From Paludibacteraceae bacterium (GTDB lineage: Bacteria > Bacteroidota > Bacteroidia > Bacteroidales > Paludibacteraceae), in contig CAXXCL010000001.1 of assembly GCA_963668615.2 (NCBI GenBank), positions 233,521-297,520 of the forward strand: a stretch of DNA of 64,000 bases, written 5' to 3'. This document shows positions 34,351 through 46,651 of the stretch, one piece after another (the stretch's first letter is position 1; each line of letters opens with the position of its first letter). A program made the translations under genes and the position numbers. Below the pieces are notes generated by a model. That model searched no databases. It was not told the origin of the DNA and saw only the letters and a list, made by a program, of their open reading frames with translations.

Positions 34351-35358
34351 CTAAATATTTCCTTCTGCAATAAGGTATTCAGCTATCTGAACAGCATTAA
34401 GGGCAGCACCTTTTTTAATTTGATCGCTTACAGACCAAAAAAACAGGCCATTTGGATTAGTAAGGTCTTTTTTTACTCTTCCCACATATACAGGATCCTT
34501 GCCTGCCACAAACAATGGCATCGGATATTCTTTTTCCGCAGGATTATCTTGCAAAATAACTCCTTCCGCAGATAAAAAAGCCTTATGTGCTTCCTCTACC
34601 GAAATAGGGCGACTGGTTTCTATCCAAGTAGCTTCCGAATGTGCACGCAAAGAAGGAACACGAACACACATGGCACTCACCTCAATATCGGAATGCATGA
34701 TTTTACGCGTTTCATTATACATTTTCATTTCTTCCTTCGTGTAACCATTATCGGTAAACACATCTATCTGAGGAATAACATTATAAGCCAACTGATAAGC
34801 AAATTTTGATACGGTCGGTTTTTCGCCGTTTAGTACTTGCTTGTATTGTAATTCCAATTCGTCCATAGCAGCAGCACCCGCACCACTGGCTGCTTGATAA
34901 GTAGACACATGCACTTTTTTAATGTGTGATAATTTTTCTATCGCCTGCAATGCTACAACCATTTGAATGGTAGTGCAATTAGGATTGGCAATGATACCAC
35001 GAGGACGCACTTTTGCATCCGGAGCATTCACTTCGGGCACTACCAAAGGAACATCCGAATCCATACGAAATGCACTTGAATTATCTATCATTACAGCACC
35101 AAATTTGGTAATATCGGCTGCAAATTCTTTAGAAATACTTGCTCCGGCAGATGTAAAGGCAATATCAATTCCTTTAAAATCATCTCCATGTTTTAATTCT
35201 TTGACAGTATATTTTTTACCCTTAAAGGTGTATTCCGTTCCGGCACTACGAGAAGAACCGAATAATACTAACTCACTAATGGGAAAATTGCGTTCTGCAA
35301 GAACTCTCAAAAATTCTTGTCCAACCGCACCACTGGTTCCGACAATTGCTACTTTCAT
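34351..35358 (-). CDS. asd: Aspartate-semialdehyde dehydrogenase
   Basis: 335-aa ORF starting [16 protein letters not shown], with active-site context [12 protein letters not shown] and a SGAG motif. Confidence 0.94.
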
Positions 35359-35535: not shown

Positions 35536-35570
35536 CTCTGCAATTAAAAAACACTTTAACACAAAATACA

Positions 35571-35784
35571 ATGAAAAAAATATTATTCTCGGTTTTTCTA
35601 TGTTGTAGCATCAACTTTTCATCTGTTGAATAACCTTATACAGGGTATAAAATTAGAGGAACGGACGTTGAGAGGTAGCCGTTGGTATAGGGAGAATTAT
35701 CAAGAAACGCTACCAAGCGGGCAGTACGTGTTACAAATGATAACGGAGACTGTTCGTGCAACCTATAAGCTGATTATACGATAG
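35571..35784 (+). pseudogene. Collapsed remnant of a T9SS cargo gene (signal peptide plus C-terminal sorting-domain tail in different frames)
   Basis: ATG 35571 gives MKKILFSVFLCCSINFSSVE then a stop. The +1 frame is open over 35575-35781 and ends ...ERTLRGSRWYRENYQETLPSGQYVLQMITETVRATYKLIIR then a stop, which resembles the last strands of a T9SS CTD. Confidence 0.55.
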
Positions 35785-35786
35785 AG

Positions 35787-38700
35787 ATGAGAATGACACA
35801 CAGACAACATACCATTTCGTTTAGGTTTATACTTTGCTTAACGGTATTCTTTTTTGCAAAGAGTATTTTTTTGCAAGCCCAGTTACGCAGTACCTATCCG
35901 GTACAGGTAAGTACGGTGGTGTTAAGTCCGGCACCTATCTATTTGGTAGATTATAGCGGAGGCGAGACGGACAAGCTATCCGTTACGTTGCTGAGTCGGG
36001 ATTTGAACCAATCGAGTTTGAAAGTTAAATTGCGACTTACCCTCAAATGTTCGATGGGACAGGAGTTGGTTACCAAGACCGAAGCCTATTTCGAGGCGAT
36101 AACCTTGGAACCGGGTGTGCCGTTGCGTTTGACCATGCAAGAGTTGGCACCGTATTTCAGGCAAGAAAATTTGAATAGTTACGGAAGCCTTTCGCAAGGG
36201 AAATTGCCGTTGGGCAGCACGCAGTTTTGTTTTGAGGCGGTGGAATATTATACCGGCAAAGTTCTTTCGACACAAAGTTGCGGTTCCACGTTTTTAGCTT
36301 TGCAGAAGCCTCCGCTTTTGGTACAACCGGCTGTTGGGAAAAAGCAATATGCAAGCGATAATTTGAATATACTTTTTCAGTGGTCGCCGCAACATTCTTT
36401 GGGAGTAGGTACGGTAGAATATGAGTTTACGCTGAAAGAAATAGAGGATAATACAGCTTCATTGGAAACGGCCTATAGCTATTCTCCTGTCATTTACAGC
36501 ACCACCACGGGAGCTACCGGTTTGGCGTATACAATGGCCAATCCGCCCCTGTCAGCCAATAAGAAATATGCCTGGAGCGTTCGAGCTTTTTTGCCCTTTT
36601 CAGCCAATGCAAGCAATATTCCCTTTGAAAATAATGGCAACAGTACCATTTCGTGGTTTCAAATGAAATCACCCTGCACGGCACCCACCAACGTACAAGC
36701 CGCCACATCGGATGATAAGTTGATATTGGAATGGACACCTTCGAGAGAATACAGCTCCTACGAAGTAAGCTACCGCCGTAGTGATTTTGACAAACAAACC
36801 TGGTACCAACAGCAAACACAAGACGCCACCATTACCTTGAAAGACCTTACCCCGGGACATACGTACCTTTATCGGGTAGGAGGCGTTTGTGAAGGACAAA
36901 CGGAAGTAACATACGGCAGCTCGGATAGCCTTGCCCTTCCTTTAAATGACAGCATTATTTTGGCACATTGCGGAGAAAAACCTTCAATAGAACTCTCCAA
37001 CCAAGAACCCAAAGAATCTTTGACACAGGGGGATAAGATTAAGGCAGGTGATTTTTCCGTTACCTTGACAAGCGTTAATGGAAGCCATGGCATTTTCAGT
37101 GGAGAAGGATATGCGGTTGTCCCTTTTGTGGGTAATTTGCCCTTAGCGGTACATTTTACGGGCATAGGCGTAAACACGGACAATCAGCTGATATCAGGGT
37201 TTATCGAAACAAAATATGATGCATCCAATTCGGGTATTGTAAGTACCGATGTTCTCTTTTATGGCGGAACGGCAACCGCCCAGGCAGGTATTATAAAGCC
37301 CGATGTAACGTTAGCGTTCAGCGTGTCGGAACAAACCCGGGTGCAGTACGACCCAGAGAGTCATACCTTGCTTTTTTATGATGCCACGGGAAATTTGATA
37401 GGAAGCGTAGAACCTTCGGGAGATGAATCCGATGTTTCTTTTCCTGTTATCATACAAGATAAAGACGGCAATACGTACGAGGTAGCTCCTGCCGATGGAG
37501 CCTCGTCTGCGGGCGGTACCACGCAAAAGTGTGTGCTTACCCCTTTGGGAAAACAAGGAGCCGCTTTGTCCGATAATGCCTTTAATTACAATACATTGGA
37601 TACGAATAAAGGCATGGTGACCTTTTTTGATGAGGGCGGAACATACAGTTTTGATACCTTTTTGCCGTATTACGATAATGTTTCTTTAATCCGTTATGCC
37701 AATGGTCAGGATGGCGATCGTCTTTATCCTAAACTTTCCGCTACCTATTATGTGCCCTGGAAGTTTATTCCAACAGGAAAGAAAGATAAAGTCAACGCTT
37801 CTGTCAGTTTGTCGGACAAGACCTTAGAGGCAACCAAAATTGTTTTTGAAACCAAGGAAGGCTTGGTTGTTCCGTCTGTATATGATGCCAAGAAAAAGGA
37901 ATTTGAACTTACCTTAACCGGCACCCAGGAGGGTAGCAGTCAGAGTGTTTATGCTCTATATCCATGCGGCAGCGATAAATATTACCAGTTGGGACAGTTG
38001 CGTACCGACTCCCACAGTACACAGACATACAAAGTGGTGTTGGTCAATGCAGGAGGCAGTTATCAAACCAATACCATTGGCAAAGAACTCAATGCCCTGT
38101 ACAACAAAATAGGCATTAATTGGGAAGTGGAAGAAGTTACGGATTTTAGTTACGACGCCGACCAAATAAAGAACCTGTTTGACAAAAACAGCGGCTTGTT
38201 GAGTGCCTATAACAGCGAAATGGTAAGTCTGAACAATGAGCTGAAAACCTTTTTGGGCAGCCGATACGATGCGACGGCTTGTTACGTGTTTATGGCAGAT
38301 AAGAATGCCGCAGGAAAGAAACGCGATGTGGTAGGTTTTATGCCCCGAGGCAGACAGTTTGCCTATATGTATGCGGGTGATATGGCAAAAGATGAAATCT
38401 CGGCAGCCATAGCCCATGAGCTGGCACATGGTAAGTTTAAGCTACGCCATACCTTTGATGCGTCGTATGGCTCCGACAGAAAAGAGGGCGAAAATCCTAC
38501 GAACCTGATGGACTACCGGGGTGGTACCCATATAGCCAAATGGCAATGGAGTCAGGTATATGACCCTGCTATTTTGAATGGCATCTTTGATAGCGACGAA
38601 GAGGGACAATTGGCTATCCTTGGGGGCATTACTTGGTTAGGCGACTTGTTTTGGGGTCTGGCTCCCGATGCACAAGAAAAAAGTATAGAAAAAGATATAT

Positions 38701-39806
38701 CTTTGTTTAACCATGTTTACCAAAAATATGACAGCTATTTTGCTGCTTCAACCACAAAAAATACGGCTATAGGTTTAACCGCTTATAAGAAATGGTCGGT
38801 AAGAAAAGAATCGCATGCACAAACGATATGTAAGAAAATATTTGAGAAATTAGTCAAAAAAGAAAACGAGCATTACACCCTGGTGTCAAAAGGGGTTTAT
38901 GTGGAAAAATACACCCTGGAAAACATACCTTACCGAATTGCTGTTTATAGTCCGAAAGGCTCTTTTGAATTGGATTACGACAAGATTCGTTTGGGCAGTA
39001 TCAGTGAATTGGCAGATTGCCAATACGTAAAAGCGGGATATACAAATACGTATGGTTTAATTTCGTTTTATAACGCCAAGCAAGAGTCGATTATGACCAT
39101 TCAAATAATGGGCGGCGAACCTGAAACAGCCATGTTGCGATGGTTAAATTACCTGGGTTTAGTGGTTGCTTCGGATAAACAAAAGGAGGCGGATAAGAAA
39201 AATGAAGAAAAACTGGATGCCGTAAATGTTAAAGTACATACTGAGGCGGATGTGAAGGATTATTGGGACGGGAAAGAAGAAAAAGGAATAAAAATAGCTT
39301 TAGACTCAATTGCTACCTATGTAGAAGCAACTGAATATAAGCAGGAAACAGGCTCTCTTCGTACTGGTAAAGATAAATTAGCATTAACTTATATGGATTG
39401 TACGGAGTTAGTAGCTCGATTTGTTCAGTTAGCTTGTGAACAAAAAGATGTCCAATCATTCTCCACATTAATGTTAGCTCCATATGCCAAAGAAAATGGA
39501 GTTTATGGAGGCTATTTAGAATTTGTATCGGGAAGTGCTTCTGAAAGTCATGTTGATATACGACCTGGAGATATTTTTATATGGAGGAGAAAATCGGATG
39601 GACATGTTGGTGTGGTAGAGTCTTACAAGGAACCATATGTCCATGTTATAGAAGCCTTGACAAGTGGATGTGAAGGAAGCCTGAATGTTGGCAGTTGCAA
39701 TCGGTGTGTAAGAAGATCAAAATATACACGGAATGGTAAGGCTTTATTTAAGCATGAGGGATGGAAAGGATATTTTAGAACTATAATTAAAAATGAGAAA
39801 AAATGA
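35787..39806 (+). CDS. Giant secreted modular protein: signal peptide, FN3-like module, HExxH zincin motif, C-terminal NlpC/P60-like Cys/His module (polymorphic-toxin-like)
   Basis: 1339-aa ORF. The signal peptide ends ..SIFLQAQ. The FN3-like segment (res about 297-375) reads CTAPTNVQAATSDDKLILEWTPS...YEVSYRR...LTPGHTYLYRV. HELAH lies at res 877-881 (nt 38415-38429), followed by NLMDY. The C-terminal motifs are MDC(1205)TELV, PGDIFIW, DGH(1273)VGVV and HVIEA. No T9SS CTD is present at the C-terminus. Confidence 0.8.
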   Translation: MRMTHRQHTISFRFILCLTVFFFAKSIFLQAQLRSTYPVQVSTVVLSPAPIYLVDYSGGETDKLSVTLLSRDLNQSSLKVKLRLTLKCSMGQELVTKTEAYFEAITLEPGVPLRLTMQELAPYFRQENLNSYGSLSQGKLPLGSTQFCFEAVEYYTGKVLSTQSCGSTFLALQKPPLLVQPAVGKKQYASDNLNILFQWSPQHSLGVGTVEYEFTLKEIEDNTASLETAYSYSPVIYSTTTGATGLAYTMANPPLSANKKYAWSVRAFLPFSANASNIPFENNGNSTISWFQMKSPCTAPTNVQAATSDDKLILEWTPSREYSSYEVSYRRSDFDKQTWYQQQTQDATITLKDLTPGHTYLYRVGGVCEGQTEVTYGSSDSLALPLNDSIILAHCGEKPSIELSNQEPKESLTQGDKIKAGDFSVTLTSVNGSHGIFSGEGYAVVPFVGNLPLAVHFTGIGVNTDNQLISGFIETKYDASNSGIVSTDVLFYGGTATAQAGIIKPDVTLAFSVSEQTRVQYDPESHTLLFYDATGNLIGSVEPSGDESDVSFPVIIQDKDGNTYEVAPADGASSAGGTTQKCVLTPLGKQGAALSDNAFNYNTLDTNKGMVTFFDEGGTYSFDTFLPYYDNVSLIRYANGQDGDRLYPKLSATYYVPWKFIPTGKKDKVNASVSLSDKTLEATKIVFETKEGLVVPSVYDAKKKEFELTLTGTQEGSSQSVYALYPCGSDKYYQLGQLRTDSHSTQTYKVVLVNAGGSYQTNTIGKELNALYNKIGINWEVEEVTDFSYDADQIKNLFDKNSGLLSAYNSEMVSLNNELKTFLGSRYDATACYVFMADKNAAGKKRDVVGFMPRGRQFAYMYAGDMAKDEISAAIAHELAHGKFKLRHTFDASYGSDRKEGENPTNLMDYRGGTHIAKWQWSQVYDPAILNGIFDSDEEGQLAILGGITWLGDLFWGLAPDAQEKSIEKDISLFNHVYQKYDSYFAASTTKNTAIGLTAYKKWSVRKESHAQTICKKIFEKLVKKENEHYTLVSKGVYVEKYTLENIPYRIAVYSPKGSFELDYDKIRLGSISELADCQYVKAGYTNTYGLISFYNAKQESIMTIQIMGGEPETAMLRWLNYLGLVVASDKQKEADKKNEEKLDAVNVKVHTEADVKDYWDGKEEKGIKIALDSIATYVEATEYKQETGSLRTGKDKLALTYMDCTELVARFVQLACEQKDVQSFSTLMLAPYAKENGVYGGYLEFVSGSASESHVDIRPGDIFIWRRKSDGHVGVVESYKEPYVHVIEALTSGCEGSLNVGSCNRCVRRSKYTRNGKALFKHEGWKGYFRTIIKNEKK

Positions 39807-40420
39807 GAAAAATAGTATTTATTTTATTTTTGGTGAGTTTCGCGGATTGTAGTTTAGCGAAACAACAAGAGACCAGTGCCGTTAATTTTTTTGATTTTTT
39901 TCTGTATGAGGAGGGTGTGTCACTCTCAGATTGTAAATTAAATGAAAAACCACTCAAAAAAATTCCTTTTATTTATTATGAATTTTATTGTGAAGATACA
40001 AATTTGAATGGGTCAGGGTGTTTTTTTGCTATACCAAAGGATACTTCAGTTTGGAAAATCAGCGATGAGGAAAATAAAAAAAATATAAAAAGGGAAGAAA
40101 AATATCAACAAACTCTTGCAAGAGAAAAAGAAGCAGTTCGTTTTTTGTTTTCTCAAAGGACGGTTCTTGCAAATAAATTTGATTTGTATGTATTTTATGT
40201 GCCTCAAAAATATATCAAGGTTCTTCCTGATGGGTTGTCGAAAGATGATGGCACTATTGCTGATTATTATTATGAATCTGATAATTCAATTATTTCGGTT
40301 TATCAATATAAGGATGGTGTATGGATAAAAAATGGTGAGTTTAAAAGTAAAGGTGAAACAACTAGAACAGCAGGAATGCTGTTTGCCGAAAAGTTGTTAA
40401 AGAAAAAGTTTTTTCAATGA
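39803..40420 (+). CDS. Secreted small protein, candidate cognate immunity protein
   Basis: 205-aa ORF whose ATG overlaps the upstream stop (ATGA at 39803-39806). It has an N-terminal signal peptide (MRKIVFILFLVSFADCSLAKQ), is AT-rich, and I do not recognise a family. Confidence 0.6.
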   Translation: MRKIVFILFLVSFADCSLAKQQETSAVNFFDFFLYEEGVSLSDCKLNEKPLKKIPFIYYEFYCEDTNLNGSGCFFAIPKDTSVWKISDEENKKNIKREEKYQQTLAREKEAVRFLFSQRTVLANKFDLYVFYVPQKYIKVLPDGLSKDDGTIADYYYESDNSIISVYQYKDGVWIKNGEFKSKGETTRTAGMLFAEKLLKKKFFQ

Positions 40421-41077
40421 AAAGACCCTTTGCTTTCGCACGAATCTTTTCGTGTGGAAGTGTTATAAAAGTAGGATATTTACAATGCAAAAAATAGATA
40501 TGGTTATGCCCACTATTGTGATTTATTTGTTGGATTTGATTGTGTAGATTTTAATGCATGTGCAACAAGTACACAAACAGTTAAGTGTAAACAAGGAACG
40601 CCAAATAAAAGCGAAGAAATCAAGAGTAAATACATTTGTACGCCTGATTTATTTGATTATGTTTACTCATGCTCTGCACGTTTAAAAGGTGGTAGATATG
40701 ATTTGGGAAATGGACCACCTACATCAAAGGATGGGTCAACATTTTTAGGACGTGGTTTTATTCAATTGACAGGCAAGTATAATTACAAAGAATTAAGCAA
40801 AGCCTGGAATGAAGATTCTGAGAATGCCAACAATAAAAAATATTTTCATATACAAACTAAAGATGGAGGACATATTGATGAGTTAGTAACTGACTTAGAT
40901 GTAGCTATGAAAGCGAGTATGTACTTTTGGAGATTAAAAGGATGTAATACGTATGCAGATAAGGATGATACAGCTGGGGTAACAAAAAAAGTTAAGGGGA
41001 CAGACAAGGATTTAAAAGAAATTATAAATAGAGGAAATATAAAAGACAAAGCATTAAAAGCATTAAAATTTAAATGA
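40421..41077 (+). pseudogene. Orphan GH19-family lysozyme/chitinase-like domain, 5'-truncated and interrupted
   Basis: One reading frame gives KDPLLSHESFRVEVL, stop (TAA 40466), K, stop (TAG 40472), then DIYNAKNRYGYAHYC...RYDLGNGPPTSKDGSTFLGRGFIQLTGKYNY...ASMYFWRLKGCNTYADKDD...VTKKVKG. No ATG precedes the track's TTG at 40703. GRGxIQLTG.NY and the xxWFW-like motif are GH19 signatures. Confidence 0.65.
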
Positions 41078-41820
41078 TTATGAAATTTAAACAACTACTA
41101 GCGATTGCGATTTTATCTACGAGTGTTTGTAATGCTCAAATAGTAAAATTATCAGATTTGAATGGCACTTGGGTTAGTGGTTTGAGAGAATCTAGTTTTA
41201 TTGTATTTGTAAAAGACACAATGGTAGGATTGGATTTTTTTAAACTTCCAGATGTTTATATTAATTATACAAAAGTTGGATTTGTTGATAAAAACAATCA
41301 AGATTTAATAAATATATATAGGAAGGAGTTTAATATGAATTCGAATTCTAATGAAGATATACGCATGGTAAATTTTGATGTTCCTGAAGACATGAAAATT
41401 GAAATTATGGATGAACAAATTAATGAAAATGATTATTTTTATTATGGAGGTACATTATGTAGTTTAGGTATTGACCCAGAGGATTTACCCTCTAAAGTAG
41501 GTTCTAGGTTTGAATTGATAAATTCTAATGTTTTTGTTTATATCAAAGTCGAGAGCTTGCCCAACGAGTATTTAAAGGCGTTGTATAAAAAAGGGAAAAA
41601 TGATAAAAAGGATTATCTAAAAGATTTCTTTAATATGGAATTTAAAGAAATCAAAGCAACAAAGTCCATTATTTATTCTACCCCCAACAAACCCACTAAA
41701 ATGTATCTTCTCAAGGGTGACGTAGTAGAAATATTGCAAGAAAAAGATGATTGGTTACAAATCAGGTATTATGGCAAGAAAACCATAGAAGGCTGGATAA
41801 AGAAGGGTGATGTGGAGTAA
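41074..41820 (+). CDS. Secreted protein with SH3b-like C-terminus, candidate immunity partner of the GH19-like remnant
   Basis: 248-aa ORF whose ATG overlaps the upstream stop (ATGA at 41074-41077). The signal peptide is MIMKFKQLLAIAILSTSVCNAQ. The C-terminal KGDVVEILQEKDDWLQIRYYGKKTIEGWIKKGDV is SH3-like. Confidence 0.6.
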   Translation: MIMKFKQLLAIAILSTSVCNAQIVKLSDLNGTWVSGLRESSFIVFVKDTMVGLDFFKLPDVYINYTKVGFVDKNNQDLINIYRKEFNMNSNSNEDIRMVNFDVPEDMKIEIMDEQINENDYFYYGGTLCSLGIDPEDLPSKVGSRFELINSNVFVYIKVESLPNEYLKALYKKGKNDKKDYLKDFFNMEFKEIKATKSIIYSTPNKPTKMYLLKGDVVEILQEKDDWLQIRYYGKKTIEGWIKKGDVE

Positions 41821-42044
41821 TGAAATAATGGATCAAAAGGAGAACTATTTGTATCAGAATCCCCGTCCAATGCGATTTAATTAATCCCATTACTCTATGT
41901 TATAAGAAATTGCATTTCGTAAAAGAACCAAATATATGGAAGAGGAAAATCAAAAAATAATTTATTTTCCCGTCAAGCAATATTTACCAATCCTGTTTTT
42001 TTTATTTTTGAAATGAATAACCAACATATTTCCAAATAAAGAGG

Positions 42045-42080: not shown

Positions 42081-42917
42081 ATGAATAAGAAAATTATCCT
42101 CATCTGCACTATATGTTGCGGATTAGTCATTTCAGGATGCAACAAGGCTACCAAAAATGATGCAAAAGCGGAAGTTGCACATACTCCAGTTGTAAAACAA
42201 GATACCGTTGTTGCCGCTCCAACCATGAACACGCCTGAACAAATTTTGGCAAAGCCCGAAGTTCCGGTTCTTTGTTATCACCGTATCACAGAAGGTCACG
42301 AAGGCACTTATACGGTAACACCTGCCACATTTGCGGCACACATGAAAATTTTGGCTGATAGTGGTTATCACTCCATTTCCCCTGATCAATTGTATGATTA
42401 TCTTGTGTACAACAAAAATTTACCCGAAAAACCTTTCATGATAACTTTTGATGACTCGAGAGTAGAACACCGTGAAATAGCCGCTCCGACGATGGAAAAA
42501 TACGGATTCAGAGGCGTTTTCTTCATCATGACTATTACGTACAACAAAAAAAATTACATGACAACAGACCAAATTGCACAATTAGCTAAAAATGGACATA
42601 CTGTTGGTATGCATAGTTGGGATCATACAATGGTAACAAAATACAAAGATTCGATTGATTGGCAAAAAGAAGTCGTTGCACCAAAAGCAAAGTTAGAAAC
42701 AATAATTGGCAAACCTGTTGAATATTGGGCTTACCCAAATGGCGTTTACAACCACGAAGGAGCTGAAGAATTGAGCAAATATTTTAAAATTTCGTTTATA
42801 CTTTCATCAAAACGCGATTCTATACAGCCGTTGCAAACAGTACACCGGATGATTACAACCGAATGTTCACCGGAAAAATTGTTAAAAACAATGAACCGAA
42901 CATTTAAAATGAAGTGA
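42081..42917 (+). CDS. Polysaccharide deacetylase (NodB-homology) lipoprotein
   Basis: 278-aa ORF with a lipoprotein signal (..VISGCNK) and NodB motifs TFDDSRVEH and HSWDH. Confidence 0.8.
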   Translation: MNKKIILICTICCGLVISGCNKATKNDAKAEVAHTPVVKQDTVVAAPTMNTPEQILAKPEVPVLCYHRITEGHEGTYTVTPATFAAHMKILADSGYHSISPDQLYDYLVYNKNLPEKPFMITFDDSRVEHREIAAPTMEKYGFRGVFFIMTITYNKKNYMTTDQIAQLAKNGHTVGMHSWDHTMVTKYKDSIDWQKEVVAPKAKLETIIGKPVEYWAYPNGVYNHEGAEELSKYFKISFILSSKRDSIQPLQTVHRMITTECSPEKLLKTMNRTFKMK

Positions 42918-44338: not shown

Positions 44339-46651
44339 ATGCAAAAATATATTCTTCTTTTTTATTTCTTTTTATCCATTTCTATTTCAGCTCAAGTTTC
44401 CGATAATTTCTTTGATAATGACTTCTCAAATAACCCCGAATGGAAAGGAAATGCAGAAAAGTTCATTATTAACACATCTCAACAATTACAACTCAATGCC
44501 ACAGCCGAAAACGGAACTGCCTATTTATCAACCTCCTCGCAAGTAACCAAAAACGCCTCCTGGGAATGCTTTGTAAAAATCGCATTTACACCAAGTTCAT
44601 CCAATCTGGCAAAAATTTATCTTATTTCCGACAAAGAAGACCTAACAGCCCCATTAAACGGTTATTATATTCTGATTGGAAACAACACAAAAGACATTAG
44701 CCTTTACCGACAAGAAGAAACAACCTCCACCAAAATTATTGATGGCACAGACAATCGATTAAATGGCTCTACCAATGAAGTTTTCATCAAGGCTACCCGT
44801 TCATCAACGGGCGAATGGAAGCTATCCTCAAAATTATTAACCGAAACAGAATACTACACAGAAGGATCGACAATTGACACAAAACTGGAAGCTTGTTATT
44901 TTTCAGGCATCGTGTGCAAATACACTTCAACACGCAGTACCGAATTTTATTTTGATGATTTTCTCATTTCGGGCGATTTATATGAACCACCTGTTTTGCC
45001 AACCTACAAAGCCATTCGCGGCGATATTGTTTTCAATGAATTAATGGTCAAACCAACCCCAACAGTTGGACTCCCCGACGCTGAATATATCGAATTATAC
45101 AATAATACAAACGAAGCTGTCAACCTCCAAAATTTCACGCTTAACGGATTTTCTAAAACCTGTACATTTCCTCTTTATGTTATTCAACCGAACAATTTTG
45201 TTATTGTCTGTAGCAAAACAGTTTTGCCATCAATGCAACAATTTGTCAATTGCATCGGGTTAGAAAATTTTCCTCCACTTAGCAATTCAAGTGGACTTTT
45301 ATCTCTCTATAATGCCGAAAATGAACTCATTTCTTGGGTAGAATACTCGGAAAATTGGCTCACTGACTCTTTCAAGAAGAATGGGGGCTGGAGCTTGGAA
45401 TGTATTGACCCGACAAATTTTATAGGCAATTCTTCCAATTGGAATTCAAGCCAAAATCCACAAGGAGGAACACCCAACGCCACAAACAGCATTCAAGCCA
45501 CAAATGAGGATGTAACGGAACCTATTATCAAAAACATTGATGTAATTGACAATCAGAATATTACATTATATTTCGACAAACCGATGAATACCTCTCTGCT
45601 ATCGGACATAAGCAAATATATTTTGAGCCCAATAACAAACCTCTCTCTAGCTACTTCTAACGCACCTCAAGGAAATACCGTAAGTCTCCAATTTGCTGAA
45701 AAACTGCAAGAAAACACGGTTTATACACTGCAAATACCTGAAATAAAAGATGTTAATGGCAACAAAACCGATAAAACATATCGAATAGCAATTCCGGAAG
45801 ATATCGAACCGAATGATATTATCATCAATGAAGTTTTATTCAATCCATATAGTAACGGCGTTGATTTTGTTGAAATATACAACCGTTCCGACAAAGTTTT
45901 GAACCTAAAACAATTGATGCTTGCCAATAAAAATAGTGATGGAAAATTAAATGCCTTTCCCGTAATTGCACCAAACGGATTTCTAATCTTTCCACAAGAT
46001 TATGTTGTTTTGACAACCGAAAAACAAGCCGTCTGCAATTTCTACACATGTCCTGAGAACGACCATTTTTTAGAAATAAATTCATTCCCTAGCTTCCCCG
46101 ACAATGAAGGAACTGTTGTACTTACCACCCTAACCGAAACCATCATTGACGAATTTTCTTATTCGGAAAAATTTCACCATGCACTAATTAATAACCCAGA
46201 AGGCGTTTCCTTGGAACGTATCAGTTTCAATCGTCCATCCAACGAAGCAAGCAATTGGCATTCTGGGTCTTTTAATACAAACTACGCGACTCCGGGCTAC
46301 AAAAACGCACATACCACCGAAAAATCGACATCCGACGCTGAAATCTGGTTATCTCCAAAAACATTTTCACCGGATAATGATGGACAGGAAGATATTTTGA
46401 CCATTAATTACAAATTTACAGCAGCAGGTTACATAGCGAACCTAACCATCTACGATGCAAACGGAAACAAAGTAAAACAACTGTACAACAATGCCCTATT
46501 AAGCGACGAAGGTTCCACCACATGGGACGGCACAGACGAACAATCAAAAGTTGCTCCGGTGGGTATTTATATTGCCTACTTCGAAGCATTTAAAACAGAT
46601 GGGTCTATAGTGAAAGAAAAAATGGCTTTTGTGCTTTCTGCAAAAAAATAA
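44339..46651 (+). CDS. Secreted lamin-tail-domain (LTD) protein with Ig-like C-terminal domain
   Basis: 770-aa ORF with a signal peptide and two LTD-like segments (IVFNELMVKP...AEYIELYNNTNEAVNL and IIINEVLFNP...VDFVEIYNRSDKVLNL). The C-terminal FSPDNDGQEDILTINY...LTIYDANGNKVKQL...WDGTDE...GIYIAYFEA resembles a FlgD-Ig or T9SS type-B CTD. Confidence 0.7.
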   Translation: MQKYILLFYFFLSISISAQVSDNFFDNDFSNNPEWKGNAEKFIINTSQQLQLNATAENGTAYLSTSSQVTKNASWECFVKIAFTPSSSNLAKIYLISDKEDLTAPLNGYYILIGNNTKDISLYRQEETTSTKIIDGTDNRLNGSTNEVFIKATRSSTGEWKLSSKLLTETEYYTEGSTIDTKLEACYFSGIVCKYTSTRSTEFYFDDFLISGDLYEPPVLPTYKAIRGDIVFNELMVKPTPTVGLPDAEYIELYNNTNEAVNLQNFTLNGFSKTCTFPLYVIQPNNFVIVCSKTVLPSMQQFVNCIGLENFPPLSNSSGLLSLYNAENELISWVEYSENWLTDSFKKNGGWSLECIDPTNFIGNSSNWNSSQNPQGGTPNATNSIQATNEDVTEPIIKNIDVIDNQNITLYFDKPMNTSLLSDISKYILSPITNLSLATSNAPQGNTVSLQFAEKLQENTVYTLQIPEIKDVNGNKTDKTYRIAIPEDIEPNDIIINEVLFNPYSNGVDFVEIYNRSDKVLNLKQLMLANKNSDGKLNAFPVIAPNGFLIFPQDYVVLTTEKQAVCNFYTCPENDHFLEINSFPSFPDNEGTVVLTTLTETIIDEFSYSEKFHHALINNPEGVSLERISFNRPSNEASNWHSGSFNTNYATPGYKNAHTTEKSTSDAEIWLSPKTFSPDNDGQEDILTINYKFTAAGYIANLTIYDANGNKVKQLYNNALLSDEGSTTWDGTDEQSKVAPVGIYIAYFEAFKTDGSIVKEKMAFVLSAKK

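Follow-up and report, generated by a model that had tools for sequence, protein, structure and literature searches.

Why does the base composition of one large open reading frame (ORF) change along its length, and does the change mark an exchange of parts? The question arises at an ORF of 1339 amino acids (aa) in a stretch of 64,000 nucleotides (nt) from a Paludibacteraceae bacterium (contig CAXXCL010000001.1, positions 233,521 to 297,520), which is called the window throughout. The initial annotation of this DNA had placed a drop in G+C (GC) content at about position 39170, at a Lys/Glu-rich linker in front of a C-terminal Cys/His module, and had regarded it as a scar of recombinational swapping of toxin tips. 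According to our analysis the ORF carries two compositional seams, at 38673 and 39273, neither of which is located at 39170. We consider it probable (about 0.85) that the ORF encodes a modular toxin of the TANFOR class which exchanges its tip together with the immunity gene by recombination, and that the seams mark the joins. The parts of the ORF are given below, with total GC and GC at third codon positions (GC3).

35787..39806, plus strand, putative polymorphic toxin ORF of the TANFOR class, 1339 aa, assigned by homology to NCBI-named TANFOR proteins
35787..38621, plus strand, conserved body (aa 1-945); GC 0.452, GC3 0.466
38622..39197, plus strand, mid-domain (aa 946-1137) between body and tip; GC 0.387, GC3 0.391
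39171..39281, plus strand, Lys/Glu-rich linker (aa 1129-1165, SDKQKEADKKNEEK...DYWDGKEE), with the crossover points 39196 and 39275 at its two edges
39282..39803, plus strand, CHAP-type cysteine peptidase/amidase tip (aa 1166-1339), assigned by Pfam CHAP and invariant residues; GC 0.360, GC3 0.213

Two compositional seams in one reading frame

All 13 hand counts of G+C per 60-nt line in the initial annotation were reproduced exactly, and the heterogeneity within the ORF is far beyond chance. The proposed position did not hold, however, since a split at 39170 is 5.4 log-likelihood units worse than one at 38673. The drop could not be placed from these counts because no line had been sampled between 38461 and 39181.

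The window as a whole has a GC content of 0.361. Optimal partitioning of the whole window yielded one single aberrant segment with three of three penalties, spanning 35881-38670 with a GC of 0.458 compared to 0.354-0.358 on either side. Plain binary segmentation of the 64-kb window detected no segment, because the GC-rich block is interior to the window. The best single split of total GC in the range of 36000-41900 was found at nt 38673, where GC falls from 0.456 to 0.37. Its support interval, defined by a log-likelihood drop of 2, is 38661-38690. A model with two splits places steps at 38673 and 39765 and thereby separates regions with a GC of 0.456, 0.373 and 0.304.

GC3 changes at nt 39273, from 0.451 in codons 1-1162 to 0.209 in codons 1163-1339. 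The log-likelihood ratio of this step is 19.9 and exceeds the maximum of 11.6 obtained in 2000 permutations. Restricted to the last 394 codons (946-1339) the step has a p value of 0.0065. A significant change point near 39.2 kb, as initially proposed, is therefore present in GC3. The two seams are:

38661..38690 (best 38673), change point of total GC, 0.456 to 0.373, about 50 nt 3' of the body-end motif DPAILNGIFDSDEEG
39273..39273, change point of GC3, codon 1162/1163, 0.451 to 0.209

The first one is located about 50 nt downstream of the end of the conserved body (~38621), the second one nine bases 5' of the start of the CHAP tip. Hence the coincidence of seam and Cys/His module applies to GC3, whereas the drop in total GC is found ~500 nt further upstream. 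This drop (38673) represents a separate, older seam, situated where the family-wide body ends.

For comparison, the 43 other ORFs of the window show a GC3 of 0.309 ± 0.039 (range 0.219-0.376). The body is higher than all 43 of them and the tip is lower than all 43. One could assume that the break reflects nothing but the amino acid composition of the domains, i.e. a Gly/Ala/Thr-rich beta-sheet body followed by a Lys/Glu-rich linker and tip, and that no recombination took place. GC at second codon positions (GC2) of the body, which at 0.413 is above typical genes of the window, would agree with this, as would the linker with 0.64 at first positions (GC1) and a GC2 of 0.18, and the gap in total GC between mid-domain and tip is small. 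The strongest signal, however, resides at the synonymous-dominated third positions, where body, mid-domain and tip differ stepwise, and the tip has GC1 and GC2 values as high as those of the body; therefore amino acid composition is no explanation. Moreover the homology breakpoints fall on the GC3 seam, with a switch from 98% identity to unrelated sequence at aa 1165 (see below). Based on the GC3 result this explanation was rejected, and we concede it next to no chance.

The left edge of the GC-rich block was best placed at 35872 with a support of 35633-35914. The edge at about 35640, as described in the initial annotation, lies within this interval, and region 35640-35786 has a GC of 0.435 versus 0.25-0.26 just upstream.

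Homology breaks and tip-immunity cassettes

The sister protein P0001 is 98% identical over aa 3-1165, while its last ~173 aa are unrelated. A near-identical pre-tip segment is fused to at least five other tips (P0039, P0040, P0043/P0045, P0047/P0048 and P0052/P0056). Pfam assigns no family to the P0001 tip or to most of the alternative tips. The converse case is represented by P0037 and P0038, in which a 60% identical CHAP tip follows an unrelated pre-tip region. Body and tip do not always occur together and, judged from these protein alignments, are demonstrably uncoupled.

At the DNA level the breakpoints were located by copies of the region preceding the tip:

38936..39275 (fullest common form), plus strand, homology block and putative recombination substrate, repeated before orphan tips

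Seven copies of this block were found on five metagenome contigs (L071 and L083 with two each, L072, L082 and L084) with a DNA identity of 93-99%. Their left ends are at 38936, 38726 (L082) or 39006. The right ends are at 39275 in five of the seven copies and at 39196 in the remaining two. In front of each copy lies either a shared leader or the end of an immunity gene, and a different tip with its immunity gene comes after it. One of the tip proteins, P0052, is apparently an orphan cassette in the sister strain of P0001. The positions 39196 and 39275 represent the two edges of the Lys/Glu linker, and 39275 coincides with the GC3 step at 39273. The linker was thus rightly implicated, but the crossovers are 26 and 105 nt downstream of 39170. 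With P0001, the five or more other tips and the seven block copies with shared ends, the view of the seam as a scar of tip swapping is supported.

Tip and downstream genes are part of a variable region:

35566..41921, no strand, strain-variable island between asd (34351-35358, minus strand) and a polysaccharide deacetylase gene (42081-42917)
39803..40420, plus strand, putative cognate immunity gene 1, 205 aa, start overlapping the toxin stop (ATGA); GC3 0.224
40425..40501, plus strand, cassette junction element, 77 nt, with a small hairpin CACGAA..TTCGTG
40502..41077, plus strand, 5'-truncated orphan GH19-like (endolysin-type) tip, beginning exactly at the end of the junction element; GC3 0.204
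41074..41820, plus strand, putative immunity gene 2, 248 aa, start overlapping the orphan-tip stop, with signal-like N-terminus and C-terminal SH3_3; GC3 0.270

The C-terminal module, initially described as NlpC/P60-like, is assigned to CHAP (PF05257) by Pfam. The tip alone scores 30.0 bits (E 7e-7, cut-off 26), the full protein 26.1 bits. Cys1205 (39399-39401), His1273 (39603-39605) and Glu1289 (39651-39653) are invariant in six of six aligned sequences, corresponding to columns C40, H108 and E124 of the alignment A7. A sequence search of the tip against PDB returned chance matches only. The protein encoded directly downstream (39803-40420) has an N-terminal signal- or lipoprotein-like segment and a cassette-like GC3, and profile searches gave no family match for it. 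From its position we consider it a putative immunity protein.

In L071 and L072 the junction element recurs behind unrelated immunity genes, with 91% identity over 78 aligned columns. The element may represent the right-hand boundary or a terminator of the cassettes. A likeness of 16 nt between the junction element and the left edge of the island (35567-35582) was considered as a target-site repeat and dismissed as chance (E 0.21).

The orphan frame is open from 40475, and its earliest start codon is a TTG at 40703. It shares 98% amino acid identity with aa 180-371 of P0052, i.e. the 3' two-thirds of a GH19-like tip, and 94% DNA identity with L082 914-1495. L082 carries this cassette in intact form; relative to it, the window copy lacks the homology block and the tip's first 233 nt (~78 codons). 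The missing N-terminal part holds the HFLGQIGAETG motif (AETG). The intact tip (P0052) matches GH19-type phage endolysins in PDB with E values from 1.3e-16 to 3e-4, and Pfam scores for GH19 are only 15-18 bits, below the cut-off of 25.5. Unlike its tip, immunity gene 2 is intact.

Both flanks of the island, up to 35565 and from 41922 onwards, are 96-98% identical in contigs of other strains, and the contents in between differ. In L078 only ~1 kb separates the flanks (1636-2713) and no toxin is present. The absence from L078, the sharp homology edges and the start of the GC-rich block upstream of the ORF, at ~35640, would also suit a single horizontal transfer of the whole island 35566-41921, which had not been remodelled since and had inherited its gradient from the donor. 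Against this, the body is richer and the tip poorer in GC3 than the host, and therefore no single donor composition accounts for both. Furthermore, P0001 combines the same body and mid-domain at 98% identity with another tip, and the truncated GH19-like tip abutting the junction element shows remodelling within the island. We regard an unremodelled single transfer as very unlikely. As an earlier step, a single transfer is compatible with tip exchange.

Body, mid-domain and family-wide pattern

TANFOR proteins have been described as polymorphic toxins that occur in Bacteroidetes, are accompanied by immunity genes downstream and are suspected of a link to the type IX secretion system (T9SS) (Jana, Salomon and Bosis 2020, Life Sci Alliance, PMC7073777). 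A database search returned 30 homologues of the window protein, aligned over roughly the first 70% of the ORF, and several of them are named 'TANFOR domain-containing protein'. Their C-terminal domains are diverse and comprise ART, Endonuclea_NS_2 (non-specific endonuclease), EndoU, PT-HINT and others. The region of aa 14-942 aligns with P0015 at an E value of ~1e-105 and likewise with P0019 and P0022, which are named TANFOR by NCBI or JGI. The aligned N-terminal regions of TANFOR-named homologues reach 34-41 bits with TIGR02542, below the cut-off of 67. Because these named relatives are sub-threshold and the window protein has no TIGR02542 match of its own, membership is based on full-length homology. 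The window protein thus probably belongs to the TANFOR polymorphic toxins, by transitive full-length homology only.

The body consists of a hydrophobic, signal-like N-terminal segment, the TANFOR-homologous region, an fn3 domain (aa 299-369) and a metzincin-like domain (aa ~721-945). By eye the N-terminus MRMTHRQHTISFRFILCLTVFFFAKSIFLQAQ resembles a Sec signal peptide. The metzincin-like domain contains a conserved motif:

38415..38450, plus strand, zinc-binding-type motif HELAHGKFKLRH (aa 877-888), with the invariant Met908 downstream in NLMDY

H877, E878, H881, H888 and M908 are invariant in 19 of 19 sequences (HExxHGxFxLxH and NLMDY). In HExxHGxxxxxH the third His is placed one residue later than in the canonical HExxHxxGxxH. 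A model of aa 721-960 has a predicted local distance difference test score (pLDDT) of 83. Foldseek matched it best to fragilysin and archaemetzincin, with a probability of 1.0 and an E value of 2.5e-5, the TM-score being only 0.47. One relative shows a sub-threshold match to Reprolysin_5. From this model the last ~225 residues of the body are predicted to form a metzincin-like peptidase domain.

The alignments of most full-length homologues end at query aa 937-952, at the motif DPAILNGIFDSDEEG (aa 926-940), which reads DPAILNGxFDxDxEG. A sister lineage exhibits the same behaviour: in P0002 and P0003, 95% identity over aa 1-947 gives way to unrelated sequence. From these alignments the end of the body (aa ~945, nt ~38621) appears to be a first, older exchange point where all family members diverge.

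The generality of the pattern was evaluated in 70 family loci (L001-L070), obtained by a scan of a genome collection and not including the species of the window; identities are ≤ 46% and mostly 25-40%. GC3 of the body exceeds GC3 of the tip in 51 of 51 loci, with a mean difference of 0.187 (Wilcoxon p 5e-10). Relative to the flanks, total GC is higher in the body (37 of 40 loci), lower in the tip (38 of 40) and lower in the downstream 1.5 kb (39 of 39). Body GC tracks host GC weakly, with a slope of 0.47 and r of 0.57. It ranges from about 0.37 to 0.52 and the GC of the host flanks from 0.34 to 0.48, and the body looks foreign in low-GC hosts. Since the pattern of body and tip is repeated across loci and body GC follows the host weakly, the seam is a property of the family. 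Repeats of the 3' sequence of the main gene are also found downstream in L006, L030 and L041.

A mid-domain copy of 45% identity follows the body in L033 and precedes a Lys/Glu linker and a Peptidase_C39_2 tip. Among 1.84 billion proteins the mid-domain has 58 representatives. In every listed protein longer than ~1240 aa it is found at residues ~850-1140, directly after a body of ~900 aa. All tips that follow it and could be placed in a family are cell-wall enzymes, namely CHAP, GH19-like, C39-like and M23. Pfam returned no family for the mid-domain, and a fold search gave no match at E ≤ 0.001, for which the input model was poor (best pLDDT 63.8, the other four 37-42). Judged by its occurrence in these sequences, the mid-domain is itself a reusable module, inserted between body and tip.

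Body, mid-domain and cassettes probably differ in history as well as in base composition, so that their joins become visible as steps, in total GC at 38673 and in GC3 at 39273. A rival view attributes the AT-richness of tips and immunity genes to selection or mutation bias in place, as in rapidly evolving, weakly expressed or silenced modules, with the seam being a functional boundary. The systematic nature of the pattern speaks for it, with tips below the flanks in 38 of 40 loci and downstream regions in 39 of 39 across hosts of GC 0.34-0.52, which a single accident would not predict. It leaves unexplained, however, the step-like breaks in identity at the same nucleotides as well as a body richer in GC than the host. 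As a sole cause we consider such a bias unlikely, but it may well act together with cassette exchange.

The exchange could be envisaged as follows. The toxin would comprise four layers: a delivery body of ~945 aa ending in the metzincin-like domain, a mid-domain of ~190 aa, the Lys/Glu linker and a CHAP tip of ~175 aa, to which the immunity gene would be translationally coupled. Tips would travel with their immunity genes as cassettes, composed of leader, a block of 260-550 nt, tip, immunity gene and junction element, the block being identical to the 3' end of the mid-domain plus the linker. The block of the expressed gene would then undergo homologous recombination with its counterpart in a silent or incoming cassette, so that the tip would be replaced at 39196 or 39275. 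The body end (~38621) would act as an additional and older site of exchange. Remnants such as 40502-41077, displaced or truncated, would be left behind. As for function, the CHAP tip might attack peptidoglycan in the periplasm of a competitor, the exported downstream protein might protect kin, the metzincin-like domain might release the payload, and export may proceed via T9SS, as speculated in PMC7073777.

The modular homology with its stepwise breaks, the fixed breakpoints, the block-bearing cassettes, the strain variability and the compositional layering are established. Direction and timing of the swap event in this strain are what we infer from them.

Several observations weigh against this account of tip exchange. 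The P0001 pattern, 98% identity and then unrelated, is known from protein sequence, and at the DNA level the breakpoints were derived from orphan cassettes on metagenome contigs that are short and whose origin from the same species is an assumption. A repeat search found no second copy of the homology block within the island or the window. As the window holds no second block, this strain cannot presently switch to its own orphan by simple homologous recombination. The remnant itself allows two options, displacement of the GH19-like tip by the CHAP cassette or truncation of an orphan by a deletion, between which the data do not decide. TIGR02542 gave no match to the window protein, even with aa 31-200 alone at E values up to 10; neither it nor other NCBIfam models matched the toxin, the immunity genes or the orphan. 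Finally, the body is richer in GC than its host in 37 of 40 loci, which suggests that the cause is systematic, possibly a separate gene pool or a constraint on the body, and history alone may not explain it.

Neighbourhood, related systems and implications

The host is an uncultured member of Bacteroidales related to Paludibacteraceae, in line with its asd product, which is 84-87% identical to Asd of Paludibacteraceae metagenome-assembled genomes. The interval between asd and the deacetylase gene is a hotspot (L078 1636-2713, L073 1-4362, L079 1-4811). In one strain it contains only a Por_Secre_tail protein of 167 aa and a gene of 200 aa. Other strains carry arrays of small genes with weak matches to WapI, DUF8192 and MORN_2, possibly islands of immunity genes. 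At the left end of the island of the window a short GC-rich segment precedes the ORF:

35640..35786, plus strand, GC-rich leader upstream of the ORF, translation ...LPSGQYVLQMITETVRATYKLIIR*

In the frame of 35503 this segment reads ...YQETLPSGQYVLQMITETVRATYKLIIR* and resembles the end of a T9SS C-terminal sorting domain. Pfam gave no match for its 51 residues. By this resemblance the leader may be a remnant of the 3' end of a T9SS-substrate gene, like those beside TANFOR genes in PMC7073777. At 44339-46651, 2.4 kb past the island, a protein of 770 aa with LTD, Big_5 and CHU_C (T9SS type-B sorting) is encoded, annotated via the 100% identical contig L081. A scan for sigma-70 promoters gave counts at the level of shuffled sequence and is uninformative for a Bacteroidota locus. 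Terminator-like sites number 9 against 5.0 ± 2.5 expected, none of them informative for a Bacteroidota locus. Two of the family loci show further duplications. L006 has a 1.1-kb repeat of its own C-terminal region, 93% identical, 3.5 kb downstream of the gene, and L008 harbors two tandem TANFOR bodies, 99% identical over 2.7 kb and about 4.9 kb apart.

The layout parallels that of other polymorphic toxins. In Rhs/YD-repeat toxins a core that is GC-rich relative to the host is joined at a conserved motif to AT-rich tips with immunity genes. Downstream orphan tip-immunity pairs of Rhs keep a piece of the core for recombination, and displaced tip fragments occur. The toxin of the window shares this arrangement of GC-rich core and AT-rich tip. 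However, its body is unrelated, has neither YD repeats nor PxxxxDPxGL and ends instead in the metzincin-like domain and DPAILNGxFDxDxEG. It also possesses an additional, exchangeable mid-domain, resulting in two nested junctions. CdiA-CT/CdiI orphan modules of contact-dependent growth inhibition (CDI) and the MafB cassettes of Neisseria form silent tip-immunity arrays, each preceded by a stretch identical to the pre-tip region that enables replacement. Likewise, tip-immunity cassettes with pre-tip-identical sequence are present in the metagenome contigs, and the compositional step at the core/tip junction known from Rhs/CDI/MafB-type systems is present in the window and in the 51 of 51 family loci. 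In contrast to CDI and MafB, the delivery machinery differs, the proteins are non-homologous, and the window retains only a truncated cassette without the homology stretch. With CHAP and NlpC/P60 cell-wall amidase or endopeptidase effectors the tip shares the Pfam CHAP assignment and the invariant Cys-His-Glu, but it has no detectable sequence relative in PDB.

Like the TANFOR proteins of PMC7073777, the window protein is large, starts with a segment resembling a Sec signal, is conserved in its N-terminal region, contains fn3 and is followed by a putative immunity gene. Variation of the C-terminal toxin domain, peptidoglycan hydrolases included, is likewise shared, as are the Bacteroidota host and T9SS substrates nearby (here the CHU_C protein). 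The window protein differs by the lack of a TIGR02542 match and by the downstream genes, which in this lineage are orphan cassettes with the homology block. PMC7073777 suggests that a toxin domain with its own gene just behind the TANFOR gene might work as an independent, interacting protein; the words orphan, recombination, GC content, metallopeptidase and CHAP do not occur in that paper. Nor does it mention the orphan-cassette architecture and the nested junctions, which have parallels in Rhs, CDI and MafB. Tentatively, and at somewhat less than even odds, the lineage might run a dedicated cassette-exchange system that is new for the class, with standardised cassettes (~78-nt junction), two fixed points flanking the linker, a second family-wide junction behind a payload-releasing metzincin and the mid-domain as delivery module for effectors acting in the periplasm.

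The general understanding of polymorphic toxins remains unchanged by these findings. TANFOR toxins, however, were defined only in 2020 and are little studied, and the locus provides a nucleotide-resolved picture of payload exchange, with two nested junctions, a defined homology block and a junction element. It suggests that toxin genes just downstream of TANFOR genes are orphan cassettes rather than separate partner proteins. Where TANFOR genes lack annotation, the GC3 step between body and tip, seen in 51 of 51 loci, can serve to mark off the payload. One candidate for the protease that frees the payload is the metzincin-like domain, located immediately in front of the variable region. The subfamily sharing the mid-domain hints at a set of effectors directed against the cell wall, as would suit a toxin that needs to cross only the outer membrane of its target.

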